Positions 5,463-15,101 of a stretch of 15,180 nucleotides of DNA are shown one piece after another. The position numbers and the translations under genes are program-made. This stretch comes from a virus, in UHGV virus genome UHGV-0058267; one strand, written 5' to 3'. The notes under the pieces were generated by a model. That model was not told the DNA's origin. It worked only from the letters and a program-made list of their open reading frames with translations, and did not search any database. Position 1 is the stretch's first letter; each line of letters opens with the position of its first letter.

Positions 5463-6020
5463 TCACATAAACATCTGGATTTGCTCGTTTTTTAGTTGGT
5501 TGATTTTTTCGCGCAATCTGATCTTTTCATCAGCTTTTTCCAAAGAGGCTGGTGACATGCAGTTAATCAAAGCGTCAAGGTGCTCTGGAGATTTGATAAT
5601 AAAGAACTTTTTGTATTTATTAACAAAAACGACAGAGCATTTTTTACGTTTAAGAAGCTCAATCACGTTACTCAGAGTACCCGTGCTCTTCGTATCCCAA
5701 ACCATTAATCCATAATCGGCTTCTTCTGCCATTTTGAGATCTTTCGCAGTGAAAAACGCGCGAGTGCCGGCTGCATGGCTAGTACTTACTACATGTACAG
5801 GCCATGAGCCAAGATTATTGCGCGGTTTTTCTGAGCTACTGAATACTGTGGCTTTTTCACATCCAAGTTCTAGCAATACGCGTTGAACAGATGAATCAAC
5901 ACCATTGGCATCACCAACTACAATACGAAAACGCGAGTTAACAATTTTTTTCAGACGATCCACGATGAGTGTGTCAAGGTTTTTGATGGTTATTGAACCA
6001 GCAACAAATACCGTAGTCAT
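5463..6020 (-). CDS. DprA/Smf-like (SLOG Rossmann-fold) protein; ShosA-like component
   Basis: Contains VFVAGS...RIVVGDANGVDSSVQ, the GxAxGxD nucleotide-binding signature of DprA/SLOG domains, and a C-terminal coiled-coil tail. ATG at 6020 lies 5 nt after GGAGATAG. The track start at 6032 is a TTG inside the upstream gene. The gene starts 2 nt after the PRTase stop. Confidence 0.7.
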   Translation of the reverse strand: MTTVFVAGSITIKNLDTLIVDRLKKIVNSRFRIVVGDANGVDSSVQRVLLELGCEKATVFSSSEKPRNNLGSWPVHVVSTSHAAGTRAFFTAKDLKMAEEADYGLMVWDTKSTGTLSNVIELLKRKKCSVVFVNKYKKFFIIKSPEHLDALINCMSPASLEKADEKIRLREKINQLKNEQIQMFM

Positions 6021-6022
6021 CA

Positions 6023-6604
6023 CTATCTCCAAGTCAAAGCTGCAACATAAATGCTTCTAACCTTAGTATAATCGTTTAGCACAGCACAAGCAGCCTCCAT
6101 AGATGCGCCTGTATGGTAGAGGTCGTCAATGATAAGGACATTCCAGTTGCCATTATTCTCAATACTGTCATTAACAGAGAACGAATTACCCAGCGCCGTG
6201 ATTTTCTCTTCTTTTGTATTCAGGTTCTTTAGCGAAGCCCCGCCGGGGGCTTTCAACAAGAGGTCATCGAAGCATGGTTTGCCAACTAGTTTGGCTAGTT
6301 CCTGAGCTATTTCGGTCACTGGCTGGCGTGCACGCTGATTAGATGCAGCCATTGGAACGATAAACCCGACATTGCTGAAATGAGGAAAGGCATGCTCTGC
6401 TAGGCATTGGGCTAAAGGCTTAACTTGTGACCAATCGTCACGGTATTTAAGCTGGAAAAGAGATTCGCCTACCTCAGTACGCTCAGTCTCAAACCGCATA
6501 TGTCCCCACTCATCGTAACCAATGGGAATGCTGCGGATGCTGTGTTTATCCATCGCAAGACCTAATTCCCAATTTCCAACAATCTGTTTTATGTTGACTT
6601 TCAT
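6023..6604 (-). CDS. ComF/GntX-like type I phosphoribosyltransferase; ShosT-like component
   Basis: PRPP-binding loop VLIIDDLYHTGASM (aa 156-169, acidic pair D160-D161). 193 aa. It is the first gene of a two-gene minus-strand operon. Confidence 0.8.
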   Translation of the reverse strand: MKVNIKQIVGNWELGLAMDKHSIRSIPIGYDEWGHMRFETERTEVGESLFQLKYRDDWSQVKPLAQCLAEHAFPHFSNVGFIVPMAASNQRARQPVTEIAQELAKLVGKPCFDDLLLKAPGGASLKNLNTKEEKITALGNSFSVNDSIENNGNWNVLIIDDLYHTGASMEAACAVLNDYTKVRSIYVAALTWR

Positions 6605-6875
6605 GGCTCACCGTTTGCTGTGTAAAACACCAAAGACTACCTCTTGTTATATTTGGTGAAAGCGAAAGTTTCATTTTTTGCAGTGGAGATCAAATGTTAC
6701 TCCGTGAACATTTTTAGCATGTGGCCTCGCTACACGGTTTGGCGTAACTACTGCATGTCTATACTGCATGAATCCGCATGATCGTTTAAGGATCGCTCTA
6801 GTTGGGGCCTGCTAGGTATGGCGGGCTTTTGCTTATGTCATGCAGGTGCATGAAAACCACTATATAAAGCGGGCA

Positions 6876-6894
6876 GGCGTGGCGGGGATACGAT
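6876..6894. other. Candidate cos cohesive-end sequence (186-like)
   Basis: GGCGTGGCGGGGATACGAT compared with the 186 cohesive end as I remember it, GGCGTGGCGGGGAAAGCAT: 16 of 19 identical, including the first 13. It lies between gene A and the portal gene, where P2-family cos sits. Confidence 0.55.
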
Positions 6895-6951
6895 TGCGCT
6901 CGCATCCTTTTCGTATTAATCTGATATCAATTTAAAACGAAGAGTTCGCAA

Positions 6952-8055
6952 ATGAAAATTATTTCAATATTTAATAATAAAGGTGGTGTAGGAAAATCCA
7001 CTCTTGGATACCATACTGCGCATGCATTGGCAGAGAAAGGTATTAAAACTTTAATGATTGACCTTGATCCACAGTCGAATCTCACTTTACAGTGTATTTC
7101 TCCTGAGGAGTTAGAAAAGTTATGGCTAGAAGAAGAGCCATTTATTGAGGACTTCCAATCAGCTTTAGAGGAAAGTAAACTTTCGTATCAAGATTTTTTG
7201 AGTAAGCCGAGAAGCATTCATTGCTTATTAAAACCAATAGAAGATGGCGTCTACGAATCTTCTTCACTAAGTTCTGTTTATGAGCTTAATGATAAATTAG
7301 GTATTATTCCAGGTCGTTTAAGTTTGCATAAATATGAGGATAAAATCGCGAAGGGTTGGAGTGATGCCTTCATGGGAGAACCTCAAGCACTGCGACTTAT
7401 TACCAGTATTAGGAACTTATGTCTAGAAGCAGAGGAAAAATTTGGTTATGAAATGGTAATAATAGACACATCTCCTAGTCTCGGTATGCTTAACAGAGTT
7501 ATCATTTCTACATCAACCGGATTTTTTGTCCCATGCATGCCCGATATGTTCTCCACCTTTGGGATTACTAACATAGGAGAGTCATTAAAGAATTGGAAAA
7601 ATCAGTTCGATACCATGTATAAACTTTTGCCTGATAAAAAGAGAAATGTTTTCCCTAAAAACTTCGTTAAGTTTTTAGGTTATACTATTTATAACGCGAA
7701 GAAATATGAAGGCAGAAATGAACTTGATTTAGCGACCGCGCATTACTCATATGTTCAGAAAATTCCCAATGTGATCAAAAAACACATTCCTCAAGAATGT
7801 TATCAAGAGCAAGATCTTGCAGACATTTCACAACCAATTGGTGGAAAATCAGTTATTCACTCGCATAATACTCTTCCTTCTATGTCTCAAAAGTATAGGG
7901 TGCCCATATGGAAAGTTCCTTTCATCCAATCCATGAGCGCAGAAGACAGAGCCACTGTTTCAGGTAATAGACAGACTTTTCTTGACAAGCAGCAGGCATA
8001 TAGTGATTTTGCCGATTCTCTTTTGGCTCGTATTGATAAGATTGGAGAAGAATAG
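6952..8055 (+). CDS. ParA/MinD-family (deviant Walker A) ATPase with a large acidic insertion and a C-terminal extension
   Basis: MKIISIFNNKGGVGKST carries the KGGxGK[ST] motif with signature K10 and K15. Walker A' is LMIDLDPQ and Walker B is YEMVIIDTSPS (D172). At 367 aa it is about 100 aa longer than a minimal ParA. The DNA is very AT-rich. Confidence 0.85.
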   Translation: MKIISIFNNKGGVGKSTLGYHTAHALAEKGIKTLMIDLDPQSNLTLQCISPEELEKLWLEEEPFIEDFQSALEESKLSYQDFLSKPRSIHCLLKPIEDGVYESSSLSSVYELNDKLGIIPGRLSLHKYEDKIAKGWSDAFMGEPQALRLITSIRNLCLEAEEKFGYEMVIIDTSPSLGMLNRVIISTSTGFFVPCMPDMFSTFGITNIGESLKNWKNQFDTMYKLLPDKKRNVFPKNFVKFLGYTIYNAKKYEGRNELDLATAHYSYVQKIPNVIKKHIPQECYQEQDLADISQPIGGKSVIHSHNTLPSMSQKYRVPIWKVPFIQSMSAEDRATVSGNRQTFLDKQQAYSDFADSLLARIDKIGEE

Positions 8056-8057
8056 TT

Positions 8058-8735
8058 ATGGCTCTTAAAGAAAAATATGCGGACATTTATAGGCGTCTTA
8101 AAGATGAGATCGATGCCTATGAATATTTCATGAAGAATATTAAAAATTTTTTCGAGTCAACTAAAGTAAAAGCTCATGTCCATTCACTTCGTTTTAGGTT
8201 GAAAGATATTGATCATCTTTTAGAGAAAATAGAAAGAAAAAACCATGAGGATGATCAGTTACCTGAAGCAGAGCGAAAAGGTCATATCACAGCTGAAAAT
8301 ATTTTTAACCGTATAACGGATATAGCTGGAATAAGAGTATTACACCTTCATTTAAGTCAAATGGAAGATATACATCGTGCAATTATGAGGGCAGTAGATG
8401 AAGGGGAGTATGCGCTTTTTGAAGAGCCAAAGGCATATACTTGGGATCCTGAGTCCAAAGTTTATTTTGAGAGTTTGGGTCTTAAGCCTCATGTAAAACA
8501 AAGTTTTTATACGAGCATTCATTATGTCCTGAAACCTAATAGAGAAGGGAGTGTTACTTGTTGTGAAGTTCAAGTCAGAACTCTTCTTGAGGAGGTTTGG
8601 GGGGAAATTGATCATACAATGAATTATCCTATCCAGCATGTCGATGAGAACTGCAAAGAACAGATAAAAATTCTTGCTAGACTGATTGGCGCTGGAAGTC
8701 ATTTAGCTGATTCAATTATGAAACGCTATCAATGA
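8058..8735 (+). CDS. Small RelA/SpoT-homologue synthetase-domain protein (toxSAS-like nucleotide pyrophosphokinase)
   Basis: All core SAS motifs are present: R47-L-K49-x9-K (FRLKDIDHLLEKIERK), TD88IAGIR, Y151TSIH155 and E170VQVRTLLEEVWGEIDH. 225 aa with no hydrolase or regulatory domains. The start lies 2 nt after the ATPase stop, with GGAGAAG upstream. Confidence 0.85.
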   Translation: MALKEKYADIYRRLKDEIDAYEYFMKNIKNFFESTKVKAHVHSLRFRLKDIDHLLEKIERKNHEDDQLPEAERKGHITAENIFNRITDIAGIRVLHLHLSQMEDIHRAIMRAVDEGEYALFEEPKAYTWDPESKVYFESLGLKPHVKQSFYTSIHYVLKPNREGSVTCCEVQVRTLLEEVWGEIDHTMNYPIQHVDENCKEQIKILARLIGAGSHLADSIMKRYQ

Positions 8736-8766: not shown

Positions 8767-9141
8767 TTAAATAAGTTTGTAGTCTTCAAAGTTTATTATC
8801 GGCTCATCTAACCATTTGTTAATCTCCTCAATTCTCTTTTGAAGAGGTTTAAGTTCGTTCCTAACAAAAACCATACTAGCCTTCTCCACATCCCCAAACC
8901 CCCCAACATTATTAGGCATAATCCCCATCATTTGCGGCGGCACGCGGTGCGCAGCCATCATGTCATCGCGGCTGACATTTTTGATATTCAGAAACTCATC
9001 CTTCGCCGCCACCTCTGACAACGGGATAATCTGAAGCCCGTCCTTTTTGCCGTTAGGCGAGTACATAAATAGGTTGCGGAAGTTACCCAGGGCGGCGGAG
9101 CGATGAGTTCTAACGGGATCGTGGTTGATGCGCATCAGCAT
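8767..9141 (-). pseudogene. Q: 3' fragment (about 124 codons) of the portal gene Q; the N-terminal two thirds are deleted
   Basis: ...SRDDMMAAHRVPPQMMGIMPNNVGGFGDVEKASMVFVRNELKPLQKRIEEINKWL... matches the conserved C-terminal region of P2 gpQ / PBSX-family portals, which are about 340 aa in P2 from memory. Upstream of 9141 the DNA encodes V/W on the other strand. Confidence 0.8.
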
Positions 9142-10437: not shown

Positions 10438-11035
10438 TCTGCTGCCACCGGGTTCAACACCACTGGAGCGCCGACTGGCACAAACCTGCAGCGGGATTTC
10501 TGATCTGCAGGTGCCGCTTCGTGACTTGTGGAATCCGGCAACCTGTCCGGTCAGTTTCCTGCCTTATCTCGCCTGGGCTTTCTCTGTGGATCGCTGGGAC
10601 GAGGGCTGGACAGAAAGCGTCAAACGCCAGGTGGTGAAGGATGCTTTTTATATTCATCAGCATAAAGGGACCACCAGTGCCGTGCGGCGGGTGGTGGAGC
10701 CGTTCGGATTCCTGATCCGCATTATTGAGTGGTGGCAGACCGGAGAAACACCGGGCACGTTTCGCCTGGATATTGGCGTGCAGGACCAGGGCATCACTGA
10801 AGATACCTATCTGGAACTTGAGCGGCTGATAAGCGATGCCAAACCATGCAGCCGTCACATGACTGGCATGTCCATCAATCTGCAGACCAGCGGTCCGCAT
10901 TGGGTAGGGGCTGCCAGCTATCTTGGCGAAGAAATCACGATCTATCCGTATATCAACGAAACGATTATTTCCGGTGGCACCGCGCATGAAGGCGGGGCGG
11001 TCCATGTTATTGACACAATGAGAGTGAATCCATGA
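10430..11035 (+). CDS. I: Baseplate / tail-fibre-attachment protein gpI
   Basis: MNSLLPPGSTPLERRLA...FLPYLAWAFSVDRWDEGW... is the P2 gpI family signature. It overlaps J by 8 nt and H by ATGA. Confidence 0.9.
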   Translation: MNSLLPPGSTPLERRLAQTCSGISDLQVPLRDLWNPATCPVSFLPYLAWAFSVDRWDEGWTESVKRQVVKDAFYIHQHKGTTSAVRRVVEPFGFLIRIIEWWQTGETPGTFRLDIGVQDQGITEDTYLELERLISDAKPCSRHMTGMSINLQTSGPHWVGAASYLGEEITIYPYINETIISGGTAHEGGAVHVIDTMRVNP

Positions 11036-12774
11036 GCACAAAATTTTATACCCTGCTGACGGAGATTGGTGCGGCGAAGCTTGCCAGCGCCACTGCACTT
11101 GGTGTGCCGCTTAAAATTACCCATATGGCGGTGGGGGATGGCGGCGGAGCATTGCCGACGCCGGACGCAAAGCAGACTGCACTGGTAAATGAGAAACGCC
11201 GGGCTGCGCTGAATATGCTTTATATCGACCCGCAGAACAGCAGCCAGATTATTGCCGAACAGGTGATCCCTGAAAACGAGGGCGGTTGGTGGATACGTGA
11301 AGTGGGCCTGTTTGATGAGTCAGGGGCATTGATTGCCGTGGGCAACTGCCCGGAAAGCTATAAGCCGCAACTGGCTGAAGGCAGCGGGCGCACCCAGACC
11401 GTGCGTATAGTGCTGATAACCAGCTGCACGGACAATATCACCCTGAAAATCGATCCTGCCGTCGTGCTGGCAACCCGCAAGTATGTGGATGACAAGGCAC
11501 TGGAGCTGAAGGTGTATGTGGATGATCTGATGGCAAAACACCTTGCCGCACCAGATCCGCATTCACAGTACGCGCCAAAAGCCAGCCCGACATTTACCGG
11601 AACCCCCAAAGCGCCAACGCCAGCGGCAGGGAATAATACCACGCAGGTTGCGACCACCGCGTTTGTACAGGCGGCACTGACGGCTCTTATTAATGGTGCG
11701 CCAGCCACGCTGGACACACTGAAAGAAATAGCCGCAGCCATTAACAATGACCCGAAATTCAGCACCACCATTAACAATGCGCTGGCACTGAAAGCGCCGC
11801 TGTCGAGTCCGGCACTTACCGGAACGCCAACAGCACCTACTGCGGCACAGTCGGTCAACAATACACAGATTGCCACCACGGCTTTTGTGAAATCGGCGAT
11901 TGCAGCAATGGTGGGTTCTGCACCTGCGGCACTGGATACACTGAACGAACTGGCGGCGGCGCTGGGGAATGACCCGAACTTTGCCACGACAATGCTTAAT
12001 GCACTGGCAGGTAAACAACCGCTGGACAATACGCTGACTAATTTGAGTGGAAAGGATGTAGCTGGTCTTCTCACATACCTTGGTTTGGGAGAAGCCAGAT
12101 TCTCTGGTCGTTTGTTAAACACGAATATTTTTAAAAGCTCTGGAAAATATATCCCAACACCAGGGACAAAAAAGATAAGGGTCATTGCCTCTGGTGGCGG
12201 TGGCGGCGGCGGTGGGGTTCCTGAAACAACAGAAAATCAGCAGGCAACAGCCGGAGCTGGATTGAGCGGCGCATTTATTGAAGCATTTTTCGAGGTTGAT
12301 AATGATTTCGAAGTCAACGTTATTATCGGTGCTGCAGGTAAAGGGGGGGGAGCCGGAGGAAATTCAGGTAGTGAAGGTGGCACAACTTATTTCGGTTCCA
12401 TGATAACTGCACCAGGTGGTACAGGCGGTGGCGCGGGGGGAGCATCTGCAAACACATCATATATTCAGGGTATTTCATGGGGTGCCAGTCCGACATCGTC
12501 CGGTACAGTACTAAGAGCATTTCGCTGTAGTGCAAAAACACCAGGAGCAATGGTTATCTCTGTTAAAGCTGTAGCAGGTGGTACCGGGGGGGATACACCA
12601 TTAGGTTCAGGCGGTATAGGTGGTGCAAGTTCTTCATCATTCAGCGGACGTGGTGGTGGTAAAGCTGAGGGCTTTGGTGCTGGCGGAGGCGGAGCCTGCG
12701 CACCTGCTGGAAGTGAGGCTCAATCGGGAGGTGACGGTGCCCCGGGAATAGTTATTGTTGAGGAGTATGCCTGA
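11032..12774 (+). CDS. H: Tail fibre protein gpH. The conserved N-terminal and shaft part is currently joined to a glycine-rich C-terminal domain encoded inside the invertible segment.
   Basis: The N-terminus MSTKFYTLLTEIGAAKLA...WWIREVGLFDESGALIAVGN is P2 H-like. It is followed by two fibre repeats. After the crossover site comes ...YIPTPGTKKIRVIASGGGGGGGG...GGDGAPGIVIVEEYA*, a typical glycine-rich fibre-tip domain. Confidence 0.9.
   Translation: MSTKFYTLLTEIGAAKLASATALGVPLKITHMAVGDGGGALPTPDAKQTALVNEKRRAALNMLYIDPQNSSQIIAEQVIPENEGGWWIREVGLFDESGALIAVGNCPESYKPQLAEGSGRTQTVRIVLITSCTDNITLKIDPAVVLATRKYVDDKALELKVYVDDLMAKHLAAPDPHSQYAPKASPTFTGTPKAPTPAAGNNTTQVATTAFVQAALTALINGAPATLDTLKEIAAAINNDPKFSTTINNALALKAPLSSPALTGTPTAPTAAQSVNNTQIATTAFVKSAIAAMVGSAPAALDTLNELAAALGNDPNFATTMLNALAGKQPLDNTLTNLSGKDVAGLLTYLGLGEARFSGRLLNTNIFKSSGKYIPTPGTKKIRVIASGGGGGGGGVPETTENQQATAGAGLSGAFIEAFFEVDNDFEVNVIIGAAGKGGGAGGNSGSEGGTTYFGSMITAPGGTGGGAGGASANTSYIQGISWGASPTSSGTVLRAFRCSAKTPGAMVISVKAVAGGTGGDTPLGSGGIGGASSSSFSGRGGGKAEGFGAGGGGACAPAGSEAQSGGDGAPGIVIVEEYA
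11584..12024 (+). repeat. Two tandem ~73-aa tail-fibre shaft repeats within H
   Basis: Repeat 1 (11584-11802): SPTFTGTPKAPTPAAGNNTTQVATTAFVQAAL..APATLDTLKEIAAAINNDPKFSTTINNALALKAPL. Repeat 2 (11803-12024): SSPALTGTPTAPTAAQSVNNTQIATTAFVKSAI..APAALDTLNELAAALGNDPNFATTMLNALAGKQPL. Confidence 0.85.
12068..12093. promoter_or_regulatory. Left recombination site (hix/gix/cix type) for the serine invertase, inside H
   Basis: TTCTCACATACC-TT-GGTTTGGGAGAA: two 12-bp half-sites around a 2-bp TT core, matching the TTnTCnnAAACC half-site pattern of Hin/Gin/Cin sites. 12080-12100 is a perfect 21-bp inverted repeat of 13516-13536. Confidence 0.85.
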
Positions 12775-13040
12775 TGAGTAATTTTGCTCTGATTGAACAT
12801 GGCGTGGTGAAAAATATTATTATCTGGGATGGAGAGGGTGATTTATTCTCTAATTGCGAAATTATAAATATTGATCATATAGATGCAGGCGTCGGTTGGT
12901 TCTATTCTGACGGAGAGTTTATAGCACCACCGGAACCGGAAATGACTGAATATGATGTTGGTAACATCGACGCGGTGATGGAAGCAGATACCAGCACCGC
13001 GCCGGGGGTTATCTGGCCAGTTCCACCTGAGATGGTTTAA
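12774..13040 (+). CDS. Small protein downstream of the active fibre tip; putative fibre chaperone or assembly factor
   Basis: 88 aa. The ATG overlaps the H stop (TGATG at 12772-12776). MSNFALIEHGVVKNIIIWDG... resembles small ORFs that I recall following glycine-rich fibre genes. No catalytic motif. Confidence 0.5.
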   Translation: MSNFALIEHGVVKNIIIWDGEGDLFSNCEIINIDHIDAGVGWFYSDGEFIAPPEPEMTEYDVGNIDAVMEADTSTAPGVIWPVPPEMV

Positions 13041-13206
13041 TCTCAATCAGAATGGGTTCGCCATTCTCGTTAACAGATATTTCCATTCCTTCAGGGATTT
13101 CAGATGCAGTAAAAAACCAGTTATCTTCTGGTAATTCCACAGCCCCGGTCACGTCATGAAGACCGGGGATTACTTCAGTCAAAGTAACAGGATTAAACAG
13201 GCGCAC
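13009..13206 (-). CDS. Alternative small fibre accessory gene, silent in the present orientation
   Basis: GTG at 13206 lies 7 nt after GGAGAG (minus strand ...cctGGAGAGtttattGTGcgc) and overlaps the stop of the silent fibre cassette by 14 nt. This gives MRLFNPVTLTEV..., 65 aa. The track start at 13296 would overlap the cassette by 104 nt. Confidence 0.4.
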   Translation of the reverse strand: MRLFNPVTLTEVIPGLHDVTGAVELPEDNWFFTASEIPEGMEISVNENGEPILIEIKPSQVELAR

Positions 13207-13548
13207 AATAAACTCTCCAGGAAAAAGCACTTGTTGATGGTCTTCCGTCGTACATCTGGCAGCGGACATAAAAACCTGTATTACTGACCTGGTCATCCAC
13301 GATCATTGAAACGTGAACGTTATTAGGTGTGGCCTCGTAATCTGTTCTTATTCTTTCCGCTATGCTGATAAAACGTGAAAGCTTAGGTAGTGCAATTGGA
13401 TAAACGACTTTAGCCAGCCCATTATCATTGGAACCACCAGTTCCAAATACTTCTATTGCACCATCTGACCAGCGTATCCATGCACCATTGACATTAGCTC
13501 CTCGCTGAATGACATATCTGGCTTCTCCCAAACCAACGTTTAAGAAAA
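13193..13548 (-). CDS. Silent, promoterless alternative tail-fibre C-terminal cassette (gp53-like tip), expressed only after inversion
   Basis: The minus-strand frame reads ...NVGLGEARYVIQRGANVNGAWIRWSDGAIEVFGTGGSNDNGLAKVVYPIALP...RVYCAPV*. GLGEAR is encoded by the shared inverted repeat, so inversion fuses it in frame to H (...TYLGLGEAR). The upstream MMPVSRNLCIF of the track ORF lies outside the segment and is fortuitous. Confidence 0.75.
13523..13548. promoter_or_regulatory. Right recombination site (hix/gix/cix type)
   Basis: TTCTCCCAAACC-AA-CGTTTAAGAAAA. The inner half-site is the exact reverse complement of the inner half of the left site, and the core AA opposes TT on the left, giving an inverted orientation. 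Confidence 0.85.
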
Positions 13549-13603
13549 TGCAGAGATTACGGCTAACTGGCATCATCTCCGGTTTTTATTCAGGGGGATG
13601 ATC

Positions 13604-14170
13604 ATGCTTATTGGCTATGTACGCGTGTCAACAAATGACCAGAACACCGATTTGCAACGTAATGCACTGAACTGCGCGGGATGTGAGCGGATTTTTGAGG
13701 ACAAAATCAGTGGCACTAAGTCCGACAGACCGGGGCTGAAAAAACTGCTCAGGACACTATCGGCAGGAGACACGCTGGTTGTCTGGAAGCTGGACCGGTT
13801 GGGGCGCAGTATGCGGCATCTTGTTACGCTGATAGAAGAGTTGCGCCAGCGTGGCGTGAATTTCCGAAGCCTGACTGACAGTATTGATACCAGTACCCCA
13901 ATGGGCCGTTTCTTTTTTCATGTCATGGGTGCCCTGGCTGAAATGGAACGCGAACTGATAGTTGAACGTACCAGGGCAGGGCTGGCTGCAGCTCGTGTTA
14001 AAGGCAGAGTAGGTGGACGCCGTCCTAAGTTGACCAGCGAACAGTGGGCACAGATTGGGCGTTTACTCGAGGCCGGAGAATCAAGACAGCGTATTGCACT
14101 GATTTTTGATGTAGGCGTTTCTACCATTTATCGAAAATTTCTGGCAAATAAGAGCAATGAATCTCCCTGA
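13604..14170 (+). CDS. Hin/Gin/Cin/Pin-family serine DNA invertase
   Basis: MLIGYVRVSTNDQNTDLQRNAL... (catalytic Ser in VRVST) followed by ...LVVWKLDRLGRSMRHL...FFFHVMGALAEMERELIVERT... and a C-terminal HTH (VSTIYRKF). ATG at 13604 lies 6 nt after AGGGGG. The track start at 13598 abuts the RBS. Confidence 0.92.
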   Translation: MLIGYVRVSTNDQNTDLQRNALNCAGCERIFEDKISGTKSDRPGLKKLLRTLSAGDTLVVWKLDRLGRSMRHLVTLIEELRQRGVNFRSLTDSIDTSTPMGRFFFHVMGALAEMERELIVERTRAGLAAARVKGRVGGRRPKLTSEQWAQIGRLLEAGESRQRIALIFDVGVSTIYRKFLANKSNESP

Positions 14171-14218
14171 ATCAGCTTTATTTTGATTATCCCTGAAAGC
14201 AGACAAATACCGTCATTT

Positions 14219-14236
14219 TGTGTGAATAACGGTACA
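14219..14236 (+). promoter_or_regulatory. Candidate Ogr/Delta-type activator site of the P2 late promoter PF
   Basis: TGT(14219-14221)-N12-ACA(14234-14236), the TGT-N12-ACA dyad of P2-family late promoters. It is centred ~85 nt upstream of the FI ATG, which is compatible with a -55 position and a short leader. Confidence 0.5.
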
Positions 14237-14312
14237 ACTGCGCTTAGCTGTTTGTCAGGCACAATCACTTCAACATAGGGCGAAGCCTAATCCAATCAGG
14301 AGGTTCGCCACT

Positions 14313-15101
14313 ATGGCTCAGGATTACCACCACGGGGTGCGCGTTGTTGAAGTCAACGAAGGCACCCGATCCATTACCACGGTGAGCACAGCCATCGTGG
14401 GCATGGTCTGCACGGGCGATGATGCCGATGCAAAAATGTTTCCTCTTAATAAACCCGTACTGATCACTGATGTGCTGACTGCCAGCGGTAAAGCGGGTGA
14501 GTCCGGCACGCTGGCCCGTTCGCTGGACGCCATCGCTGACCAGGCAAAACCCGTGACCGTTGTTGTGCGTGTGCCGCAGGGTGAAACGGAAGAAGAAACC
14601 ACGACCAATATCATCGGTGCAGTGACCGCTGAAGGAAAAAAAACAGGCATGAAAGCCCTGTTATCTGCTCAGACACAGCTCGGCGTTAAACCGCGCATTC
14701 TCGGCGTGCCAGGTCATGATAACAAAGCCGTTGCTACTGAGTTGCTGAGTGTGGCGCAAAGCCTGCGTGGGTTTGCCTACCTGTCAGCATATGGCTGCAA
14801 GACGGTACAGGAGGCGATCACTTACCGTGAAAACTTCAGCCAGCGCGAAGGAATGCTGATCTGGCCTGACTTTACTGGCTGGGACACGGTGCTGAATGCC
14901 GAAGCAACGGCATATGCCACCGCCCGTGCGCTTGGTCTGCGCGCCAAAATTGATGAGCAGACCGGGTGGCACAAAAGCCTGTCCAACGTGGGCGTGAACG
15001 GTGTCACCGGAATTTCTGCAGATGTGTTCTGGGATCTGCAGGACCCGGCAACCGATGCGGGACTGCTTAACCAGAACGACGTCACCACGCTTACACGGTG
15101 A
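14313..15101 (+). pseudogene. FI: Tail sheath gene FI, truncated at codon 262 (the C-terminal third is missing)
   Basis: MAQDYHHGVRVVEVNEGTRSITTVSTAIVGMVCT...YATARALGLRAKIDEQTGWHKSLSNVGVNGVTGISADVFWDLQ... is collinear with P2 FI. P2 FI continues ...TTLIRRDGFRFWGN... to about 390 aa (from memory), whereas here it reads TTLTR then TGA. RBS AGGAGG. Confidence 0.7.

Follow-up and report, generated by a model that had tools for sequence, protein, structure and literature searches.

Does the tail-fibre gene H of the P2-like prophage in the virus genome UHGV-0058267 end in an invertible segment that exchanges the tip of the fibre, and can such a switch still serve a purpose in an element that seems unable to build virions? 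The stretch of DNA analysed here, which we call the window, is a low-coverage gut-metagenome contig of 15,180 bp (European Nucleotide Archive (ENA) ERZ1310293, NODE_2766, coverage 3.6), and an initial annotation made from its letters had proposed that an invertase swaps the fibre tip between a glycine-rich domain and a gp53-like domain. The core of that proposal is borne out by the recombination sites, their cores, the reading frames and the homology of an intact invertase to Gin, as well as by the presence of both orientations in near-identical cassettes of Escherichia coli relatives. As such, we consider it very probable that the locus is a site-specific inversion switch of the Gin/Cin/Pin type in a P2-like (Peduoviridae) prophage, and that it is now most likely a functionless leftover. 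The features of the switch are, in order along the window:

11032-12099, plus strand: constant part of the tail-fibre gene H, beyond the invertible segment or at its edge (residues 1-356, the last seven being LGLGEAR)
12068-12093, plus strand: left site (site L), TTCTCACATACC TT GGTTTGGGAGAA, core TT at 12080-12081
12080-12100: left arm of a perfect 21-bp inverted repeat, within which the crossover must fall
12101-12774, plus strand: variable tip A, fused to H at present (ON), a predicted TNF-like and glycine-rich receptor-binding region of 224 amino acids (aa), 27% Gly
12774-13040, plus strand: accessory open reading frame (ORF) of 88 aa travelling with tip A, phrog_14370 (a family with no assigned function), E 2.3e-08
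13009-13206, minus strand: accessory ORF of 65 aa (GTG start) travelling with tip B, annotated as a 65-aa hypothetical protein in relatives
13193-13515, minus strand: variable tip B, at present OFF, 107 aa, joined to H on inversion
13516-13536: right arm of the perfect 21-bp inverted repeat
13523-13548, plus strand: right site (site R), TTCTCCCAAACC AA CGTTTAAGAAAA, core AA at 13535-13536
13604-14170, plus strand: serine DNA invertase of the Gin/Cin family, 188 aa, with Ser9 and the motifs GYVRVST, DRPG and VVWKLDRLGRS
13622-13693, plus strand: stretch matching the P1 cin enhancer, +19 to +90 of the invertase gene

Recombination sites and reading frames

Sites L and R have the layout that defines the sites of Gin, Cin, Hin and Pin, namely two inverted 26-bp sites with 12-bp half-sites around matching 2-bp cores, and direct extraction placed the opposed TT and AA cores exactly where they had been described. 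Extraction and a pattern scan both support this architecture, but the half-site sequence first quoted for it, TTnTCnnAAACC, does not hold for two of the four half-sites, as CATACC in the outer half of L and AAACG in the outer half of R each deviate from it by one base. When a degenerate Hin-family pattern (TTYTCNNAAACCNNGGTTTNNGARAA) was scanned with up to three mismatches, the two sites were the only matches in the 15-kb window, against a chance expectation of 0.01 and with two matches in none of 200 shuffles. The 21-bp inverted repeat (TTGGTTTGGGAGAAGCCAGAT) proved on extraction to be a perfect 21-mer at the coordinates listed above, in agreement with the initial annotation, and an inverted-repeat search returned longer arms at 12068-12100 and 13516-13548 (33 nt, 85% complementary). 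LGLGEAR is encoded at 12079-12099 and again on the opposite strand at the right repeat, and is thus read in both directions. Alignment with sites taken from the reference genomes, which had been suggested as a check, revealed the same architecture in gixL/gixR of phage Mu (TTATCCAAAACC TC GGTTTACAGGAA) and cixL of phage P1 (CAATCCTAAACC TT GGTTTAAGAGAA), where the outer half-sites are likewise the less conserved ones. The core of cixL is the same TT as in the window, and the P1 record places the crossover between its two T's.

To simulate inversion, 12080-13536 was reverse-complemented and the result translated from the H start at 11032. The frames join in this configuration: H, which now encodes 580 aa including the glycine-rich tip, becomes a protein of 463 aa, and the two forms have their first 356 residues in common. 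The alternative tip has the 107 residues that had been predicted, whereas the glycine-rich tip, given before as 227 residues, counts 224 after LGLGEAR (225 with the R). The downstream accessory ORF is swapped as well, as had been foreseen, since each arm holds a small ORF 3' of its tip; on the minus strand, however, this is probably the 65-aa GTG ORF annotated in relatives and not a 95-aa ORF starting with ATG. Thus, as with Gin and Cin, a C-terminal fibre part and an accessory gene are exchanged together behind a constant N-terminus, of which residues 1-150 match the Phage_tail_fib family (PF12571, E 2.9e-64). Both fused forms of H, of 580 and 463 aa, are annotated proteins in genomes, the latter in strains UC4315 and 214-4 and in several draft genomes. 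A scan of 11900-14400 for promoters and terminators gave no more than chance would, and it found no promoter leading out of the segment, so that we favour a swap of coding sequence and reject a flipping promoter.

Both orientations in E. coli relatives

The same cassette flips in E. coli, as seen in near-identical copies among relatives of the window contig. A megablast search of 5,426 complete E. coli genomes with 11032-14320, repeated with the segment inverted in silico, returned full-length single-piece matches to cassettes about 97% identical to that of the window, 15 of them in its orientation and 9 flipped. The cheese isolate UC4224 has the window orientation and UC4315, which its record describes as a mutant of UC4224, the opposite one; once reverse-complemented, the 1457-bp segment of UC4315 matches that of UC4224 exactly, strain-specific single-nucleotide polymorphisms (SNPs) included, and the flanks are identical. 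The record of strain 214-4 (NZ_CP025840.1) has the prophage with its flank (nfsA, rimK, grxA) at both ends, one copy per orientation (L004 and L005). In both comparisons, between UC4224 and UC4315 and between the two copies of 214-4, the breakpoints lie inside the 21-bp repeat. Orientation also differs among chicken-farm isolates with identical scores (CM188745 versus CM188749 and CM188746). Inversions in P2-like prophages of enteropathogenic E. coli (EPEC) have been detected by polymerase chain reaction (PCR) and sequencing (PMC4272514).

The terminal duplication in the 214-4 record, which was compared over more than 27 kb and has frameshifted pseudogenes in each copy, looks like an untrimmed overlap of a circular assembly, and its two orientations fit a mixed culture. 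In addition, databases list hundreds of proteins, 243 aa ("glycine-rich domain-containing protein") or 126-127 aa ("hypothetical protein") long, that begin with MMPVS..CIFLNVGLGEA. These are off-state halves of the fibre gene called as separate genes, and the switch hence accounts for the orphan ORFs of these lengths that stand beside a recombinase in hundreds of E. coli genomes.

The two tips and their accessory proteins

Judged from sequence alignment and predicted fold, which agree, tip A and the end of the cyanophage Pam3 fibre (gp24, 7YPX/7YFW) that binds the receptor are homologous, with a likeness of tip A also to the glycine-rich adhesins of the T-even gp38 type. It matches PF21722 with 32.4 bits (cut-off 24.3, E 1.3e-07) and the C-termini of phage tail-fibre PHROGs such as phrog_6202 (tail fibre, E 3.3e-53), and a profile built from 41 homologues finds the Pam3 fibre among PDB sequences (7ypx, E 7.9e-14), with an alignment that covers the TNF-like/glycine-rich region through the C-terminal G-[IV]-[IV]-I-V-E-E/Q-Y motif (..GIVIVEEY). 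The AlphaFold2 model of tip A is confident (predicted local distance difference test score, pLDDT, 89.6), and Foldseek ranks 7ypx_A, that is Pam3 gp24, first (E 4.4e-08, template modelling (TM) score 0.64), with the Bxb1 tail tip and the TNF-like/glycine-rich (TG) domains of ALK/LTK at later ranks. In Pam3, the homologous region is the receptor-binding end of the fibre, and the fibre uses a Tfa-like chaperone, gp25 (PMC9608196). The identity between gp24 and tip A is only about 26%, and the ORF downstream of tip A encodes an 88-aa protein unrelated to gp25. Unlike gp24, tip A is joined to a P2 H shaft and controlled by inversion, and a Pam3-like glycine-rich tip has not been discussed before in P2-like inversion cassettes.

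A run of eight G lies within the glycine-rich tip at 12343-12350. In strain OkiPb01677, whose copy is 99.9% identical, there are seven G at this position and H is split into ORFs of 456 and 74 aa, while UC4224 reads GGTGGGGG; the difference could be due to slipped-strand variation or to a homopolymer sequencing error.

For tip B, the label gp53-like is plausible, but as used in the initial annotation it goes too far, since its Pfam matches are sub-threshold: tip B scores 17-17.6 bits against PF21882 (Gp53-like_C; cut-off 24.9), and the same family matches 11 of 12 tip B homologues at E <= 0.1, the best at 7.7e-4. Tip B matches phrog_2557 at E 5.7e-15, and its homologues are narrowly spread, being found in E. 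coli, E. albertii, Klebsiella, Salmonella and Enterobacter. Neither tip B nor its profile gave more than chance-level matches to PDB sequences. Structure prediction of both tips, which had been proposed as a check, was thus productive for tip A and not for tip B, the model of which is unreliable (pLDDT 50.5) and too poor for a fold search.

An ORF of 87-88 aa follows the glycine-rich tip in every cassette seen. The one in the window has no match in Pfam or NCBIfam and only chance-level matches to PDB sequences. The 65-aa ORF, which is convergent with it and overlaps it by 32 bp, matches positions 1-66 of the 145 positions of phrog_5400 (E 6.7e-23), and its sole trace of a chaperone is a weak similarity to phrog_188 (tail fibre assembly, E 0.0019). 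PF02413 (Caudo_TAP) was found in neither ORF even at E <= 1, whereas the corresponding ORFs of phage 500465-1 and ETEC6335 match it at E 4e-30 to 6e-29; NCBIfam gave no match for H, either tip or either accessory ORF. The 88-aa and 65-aa proteins could represent new, non-Tfa classes of fibre-tip maturation factors. The idea that the 65-aa ORF is a shortened copy of the 147-aa Tfa of phage 500465-1 was rejected, as the two have no similarity, and arm B of that phage is unrelated to the arm B of the window beyond the site-encoded peptide.

Invertase and proposed mechanism

As the initial annotation held, the invertase gene is intact and lies just outside the right site, although its start is more likely the ATG at 13604 than position 13598, giving the 188 aa annotated in relatives. 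The protein has the N-terminal catalytic domain with its serine and the C-terminal helix-turn-helix of a Gin/Cin recombinase (PF00239, resolvase catalytic domain, E 1.7e-52; PF02796, HTH_7, E 4.9e-15). It aligns over residues 1-184 with crystallised Mu Gin (3uj3/4m6f, E 1.8e-91), with the catalytic Ser9 in place, and is 73-74% identical to Mu Gin and 76% to P1 Cin. In the P1 record, the enhancer is annotated at 31678-31749 and the cin start at 31660; the homologous stretch in the window is identical to it at 56 of 72 positions (78%) and to Mu at 52 of 72 (72%), about the same as the neighbouring coding sequence.

We propose that the small serine invertase (13604-14170) would bind the two 26-bp sites, cut at their matching 2-bp cores and invert the 1.4-kb segment between them, presumably requiring that Fis occupy an enhancer within the 5' end of the invertase gene, by analogy with Gin and Cin. 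The crossover would fall within codons common to both arms (LGLGEAR) and would thereby join the 356-residue constant part of H to one of two tips, namely the 224-residue TNF-like/glycine-rich receptor-binding tip followed by the 88-aa ORF, which is the present state, or the 107-residue tip followed by the 65-aa ORF. In intact relatives, a population of lysogens would then be expected to release phage of two receptor specificities. The remnant in the window has no head, lysis, tube or tape-measure genes and no fibre-operon promoter, and here the switch would most likely be a leftover.

A switch in a decaying prophage

The state of the prophage is evident from its flanking genes, for which three further features are needed:

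8767-9141, minus strand: portal-gene fragment, with a junction (about 9082-9087) to the 3' end of baseplate gene V
14219-14236, plus strand: TGT-N12-ACA element at the position of the P2 pF activator site, with the sheath gene 77-94 bp downstream
14313-15101, plus strand: truncated tail-sheath gene FI, 262 aa versus 390, fused at 15092 to mid-tape-measure sequence (from a blastn comparison with an intact relative)

The window has the P2 gene order A, (Q...V), W, J, I, H, ..., FI, T, with Pfam matches to GPA, portal, gp25/W, Tail_P2_I, tail fibre and sheath, and strain OkiPb01677 has next to ssrA a complete P2-like prophage to which the window is 99.3% identical over 6 kb. Two internal deletions relative to an intact relative make the prophage defective, in line with the earlier claim that it can no longer build virions. 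The first, of about 10.4 kb by comparison with the OkiPb01677 prophage, starts within the portal gene, stops at the 3' end of V and removes the head, lysis and tail genes together with the V-operon promoter. The second, of about 3 kb, extends from the middle of FI to the middle of T, and with it the sheath C-terminus, the tube, E/E' and the N-terminus of T are gone. Two further metagenome assemblies contain the FI-T junction ORF as well; one of them shows 4 SNP differences and runs on into T and U. This deletion is therefore real. No record with both deletions was found when complete E. coli genomes were searched with the whole window (best coverage 69%). Near the fibre genes there is a single Ogr-type TGT-N12-ACA element, that of pF upstream of FI (in the P2 record, the pF activator site is at 17555-17583 and FI starts at 17652), and none precedes W-J-I-H.

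Many E. coli assemblies contain the portal-V junction ORF (61 index blocks). At the majority of these places (L024 and 22 similar ones), a deletion that begins at the N-terminal 170 residues of H and extends to T has removed the switch and the invertase, and one (L025, SRR28808175) lacks everything from W to ogr. Because these sister remnants have no switch, the switch in the window is most likely a relic, and the window is one stage of a decay series whose members can do without the switch. The initial annotation had asked whether the switch is a relic or serves a helper phage or a tailocin-like use; the former is the most likely answer, and the latter is disfavoured, as the sheath, tube, tape-measure and late promoter are gone and the sisters are switchless. 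The L024 assembly (GCA_003303855.1, NSBB01000024.1) and L025 have a portal-V junction and cargo identical to those of the window and larger deletions, a decay series of one prophage at a site adjoining the aspartate:alanine antiporter gene and ybjM.

Alternative readings

Several observations weigh against a Gin-type switch that has ended as a leftover. The accessory ORF of neither tip is a recognisable tail-fibre assembly chaperone. The likeness of 13622-13693 to the cin enhancer is one of position and homology, which makes the stretch a candidate enhancer, and a scan for G-N13-C Fis sites gave candidates at +22 and +71 of the invertase gene that are common to Mu and too weak to count as evidence. 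The plus-strand cargo genes upstream (6952-8735) could still express H by read-through. All three assemblies of the remnant show one and the same orientation. Finally, the remnant invertase has Leu at residue 180 (P180L; 14141-14143), directly after the recognition helix, where Pro is found in nine of nine aligned homologues of 57-99% identity (E. coli prophage, Mu, P1, pro483, P88, a Yersinia Mu-like phage, Erwinia ENT90, a Stenotrophomonas phage and a Haematospirillum plasmid); this change could weaken DNA binding. An independent assembly of the remnant (contig L012) likewise has Leu180, which is thus not a read error. As to inactivating changes relative to homologues, then, the ORF and the catalytic motifs are intact, and one substitution stands at a conserved position.

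It is possible, if rather unlikely, that the switch is frozen, the remnant lineage having ceased to flip through P180L or non-expression and being locked with the glycine-rich tip on H. The invariance of the position and the presence of P180L in two independent assemblies would fit such a state, as would the common orientation of all three remnant contigs and the decay of the element, which is under way. However, P180L is one change only, looks conservative and lies outside the catalytic domain, with the catalytic motifs all intact; assemblies give the majority orientation only; and other invertases in the cell might act in trans, as PinQ is reported to do on the e14 segment (PMC12529663).

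We regard as improbable an exapted switch, in which H would be expressed by read-through from the cargo and the orientation-dependent tips would serve the host, by masking receptors against phages, or a co-resident P2-like phage or tailocin. There is a precedent in PinQ/StfE2 of e14 (PMC12529663), the remnant retains W-J-I-H and the switch as intact ORFs, and the plus-strand cargo genes lie directly upstream, from where read-through could come; yet the promoter region of the fibre operon itself is deleted and no Ogr-type element is left, the truncated or missing sheath, tube and tape-measure genes mean that no tailocin can come from this locus, and most places found with the same portal-V junction (the 22 similar to L024) do without the switch. 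That the database orientations reflect assembly errors or RecA recombination between short inverted repeats is hardly credible, for although inverted repeats can confuse assemblers and the 214-4 record has an untrimmed overlap with frameshifts, the 21-bp repeat is far shorter than reads, the 24 full-length places in complete genomes are split 15:9, the breakpoints are exactly at canonical 26-bp sites beside a Gin homologue, and PCR and sequencing have confirmed this behaviour in homologous systems (PMC4272514).

Relation to known inversion systems

The inversion switch that we favour is a new arm combination in a long-known system, of which the mechanism, location and logic are textbook. In Mu (Gin) and P1 (Cin), as in the window, a small serine invertase, 73-76% identical to the one described here, is encoded just outside one site, about 55 bp away; the enhancer is in the 5' coding region of the invertase gene, where the window has its homologous stretch; and a constant fibre N-terminus outside the segment faces two convergent arms of tip and accessory gene inside it. 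The segment of the window is smaller (1.4 kb versus about 3 kb for Mu G and about 4.2 kb for P1 C). Mu and P1 have S/S'-type tips with U/U'-type Caudo_TAP chaperones as accessory proteins, whereas the window has a Pam3-like glycine-rich tip and a small 107-aa tip with ORFs (88 and 65 aa) that are not of this type, and the host element is P2-like, which Mu and P1 are not.

Closer still are the cassettes of P2-like elements (500465-1, Cartapus, pro483, P88, Klebsiella Kp48xx and EPEC E2348/69), which have the order I - H - arm - arm - invertase - sheath of the window, a constant H part and an invertase 95-98% identical to its own, and the same junction peptide (..NVGLGEA) in the off-state ORF. 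Those phages have two canonical arms, each with a Caudo_TAP assembly protein, so that their genes run H, Tfa, Tfa, tip, invertase, sheath, while both arms of the window are non-canonical. The arms also occur in other pairings: the gp53-like (tip B) arm stands with a canonical tip and Tfa arm in ETEC6335, the glycine-rich arm with a Caudo_TAP arm in two draft E. coli genomes (L015 and L018), and phage 500465-1, with its two canonical arms, nevertheless has the same site-encoded peptide. The arms are thus exchanged as modules, with the recombination site doubling as the module junction and the peptide ..NVGLGEA / LGLGEAR remaining constant, so that in P2-like cassettes a common crossover peptide (LGLGEA) lets very different receptor-binding tips combine. 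The initial annotation considered the location of the switch in the G-FI interval (Z/fun position) unusual, which we cannot confirm. In P2 this interval holds fun(Z), but many P2-like phages and a large proportion of E. coli genomes have an invertase and an invertible fibre segment in it, and it is the regular place of the invertase in 500465-1, Cartapus, pro483, P88 and the Klebsiella phages.

The e14 P segment with Pin, in cryptic prophages, is another case of an invertible fibre segment in a defective prophage with a Hin-family invertase, although e14 is lambdoid and the element in the window P2-like. PinQ inverts the e14 segment in the cryptic prophage to give StfE2, which blocks T2 adsorption (PMC12529663). 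A host-level phenotype has hence been reported for e14, whereas the sister remnants of the window have lost their switch. The window adds a well-documented further example of a Gin-family tail-fibre switch, most likely as a decaying leftover, and opens no new question.

Other genes in the window

A cargo block at 5463-8735 lies between the replication gene and the portal fragment. On the minus strand it encodes proteins of 185 and 193 aa with weak matches to ShosT/PsyrT-like phosphoribosyltransferases (E 1e-8), and on the plus strand a ParA-like ATPase of 367 aa and a RelA/SpoT-domain protein of 225 aa with a weak match to the PADLOC candidate system PDC-S33. From these matches, the block looks like candidate anti-phage cargo at a P2 hotspot. 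In addition, a Dam-type (D12 class) adenine methyltransferase is encoded at 1459-2376, immediately upstream of replication gene A, with which it overlaps; related prophages have the same arrangement.

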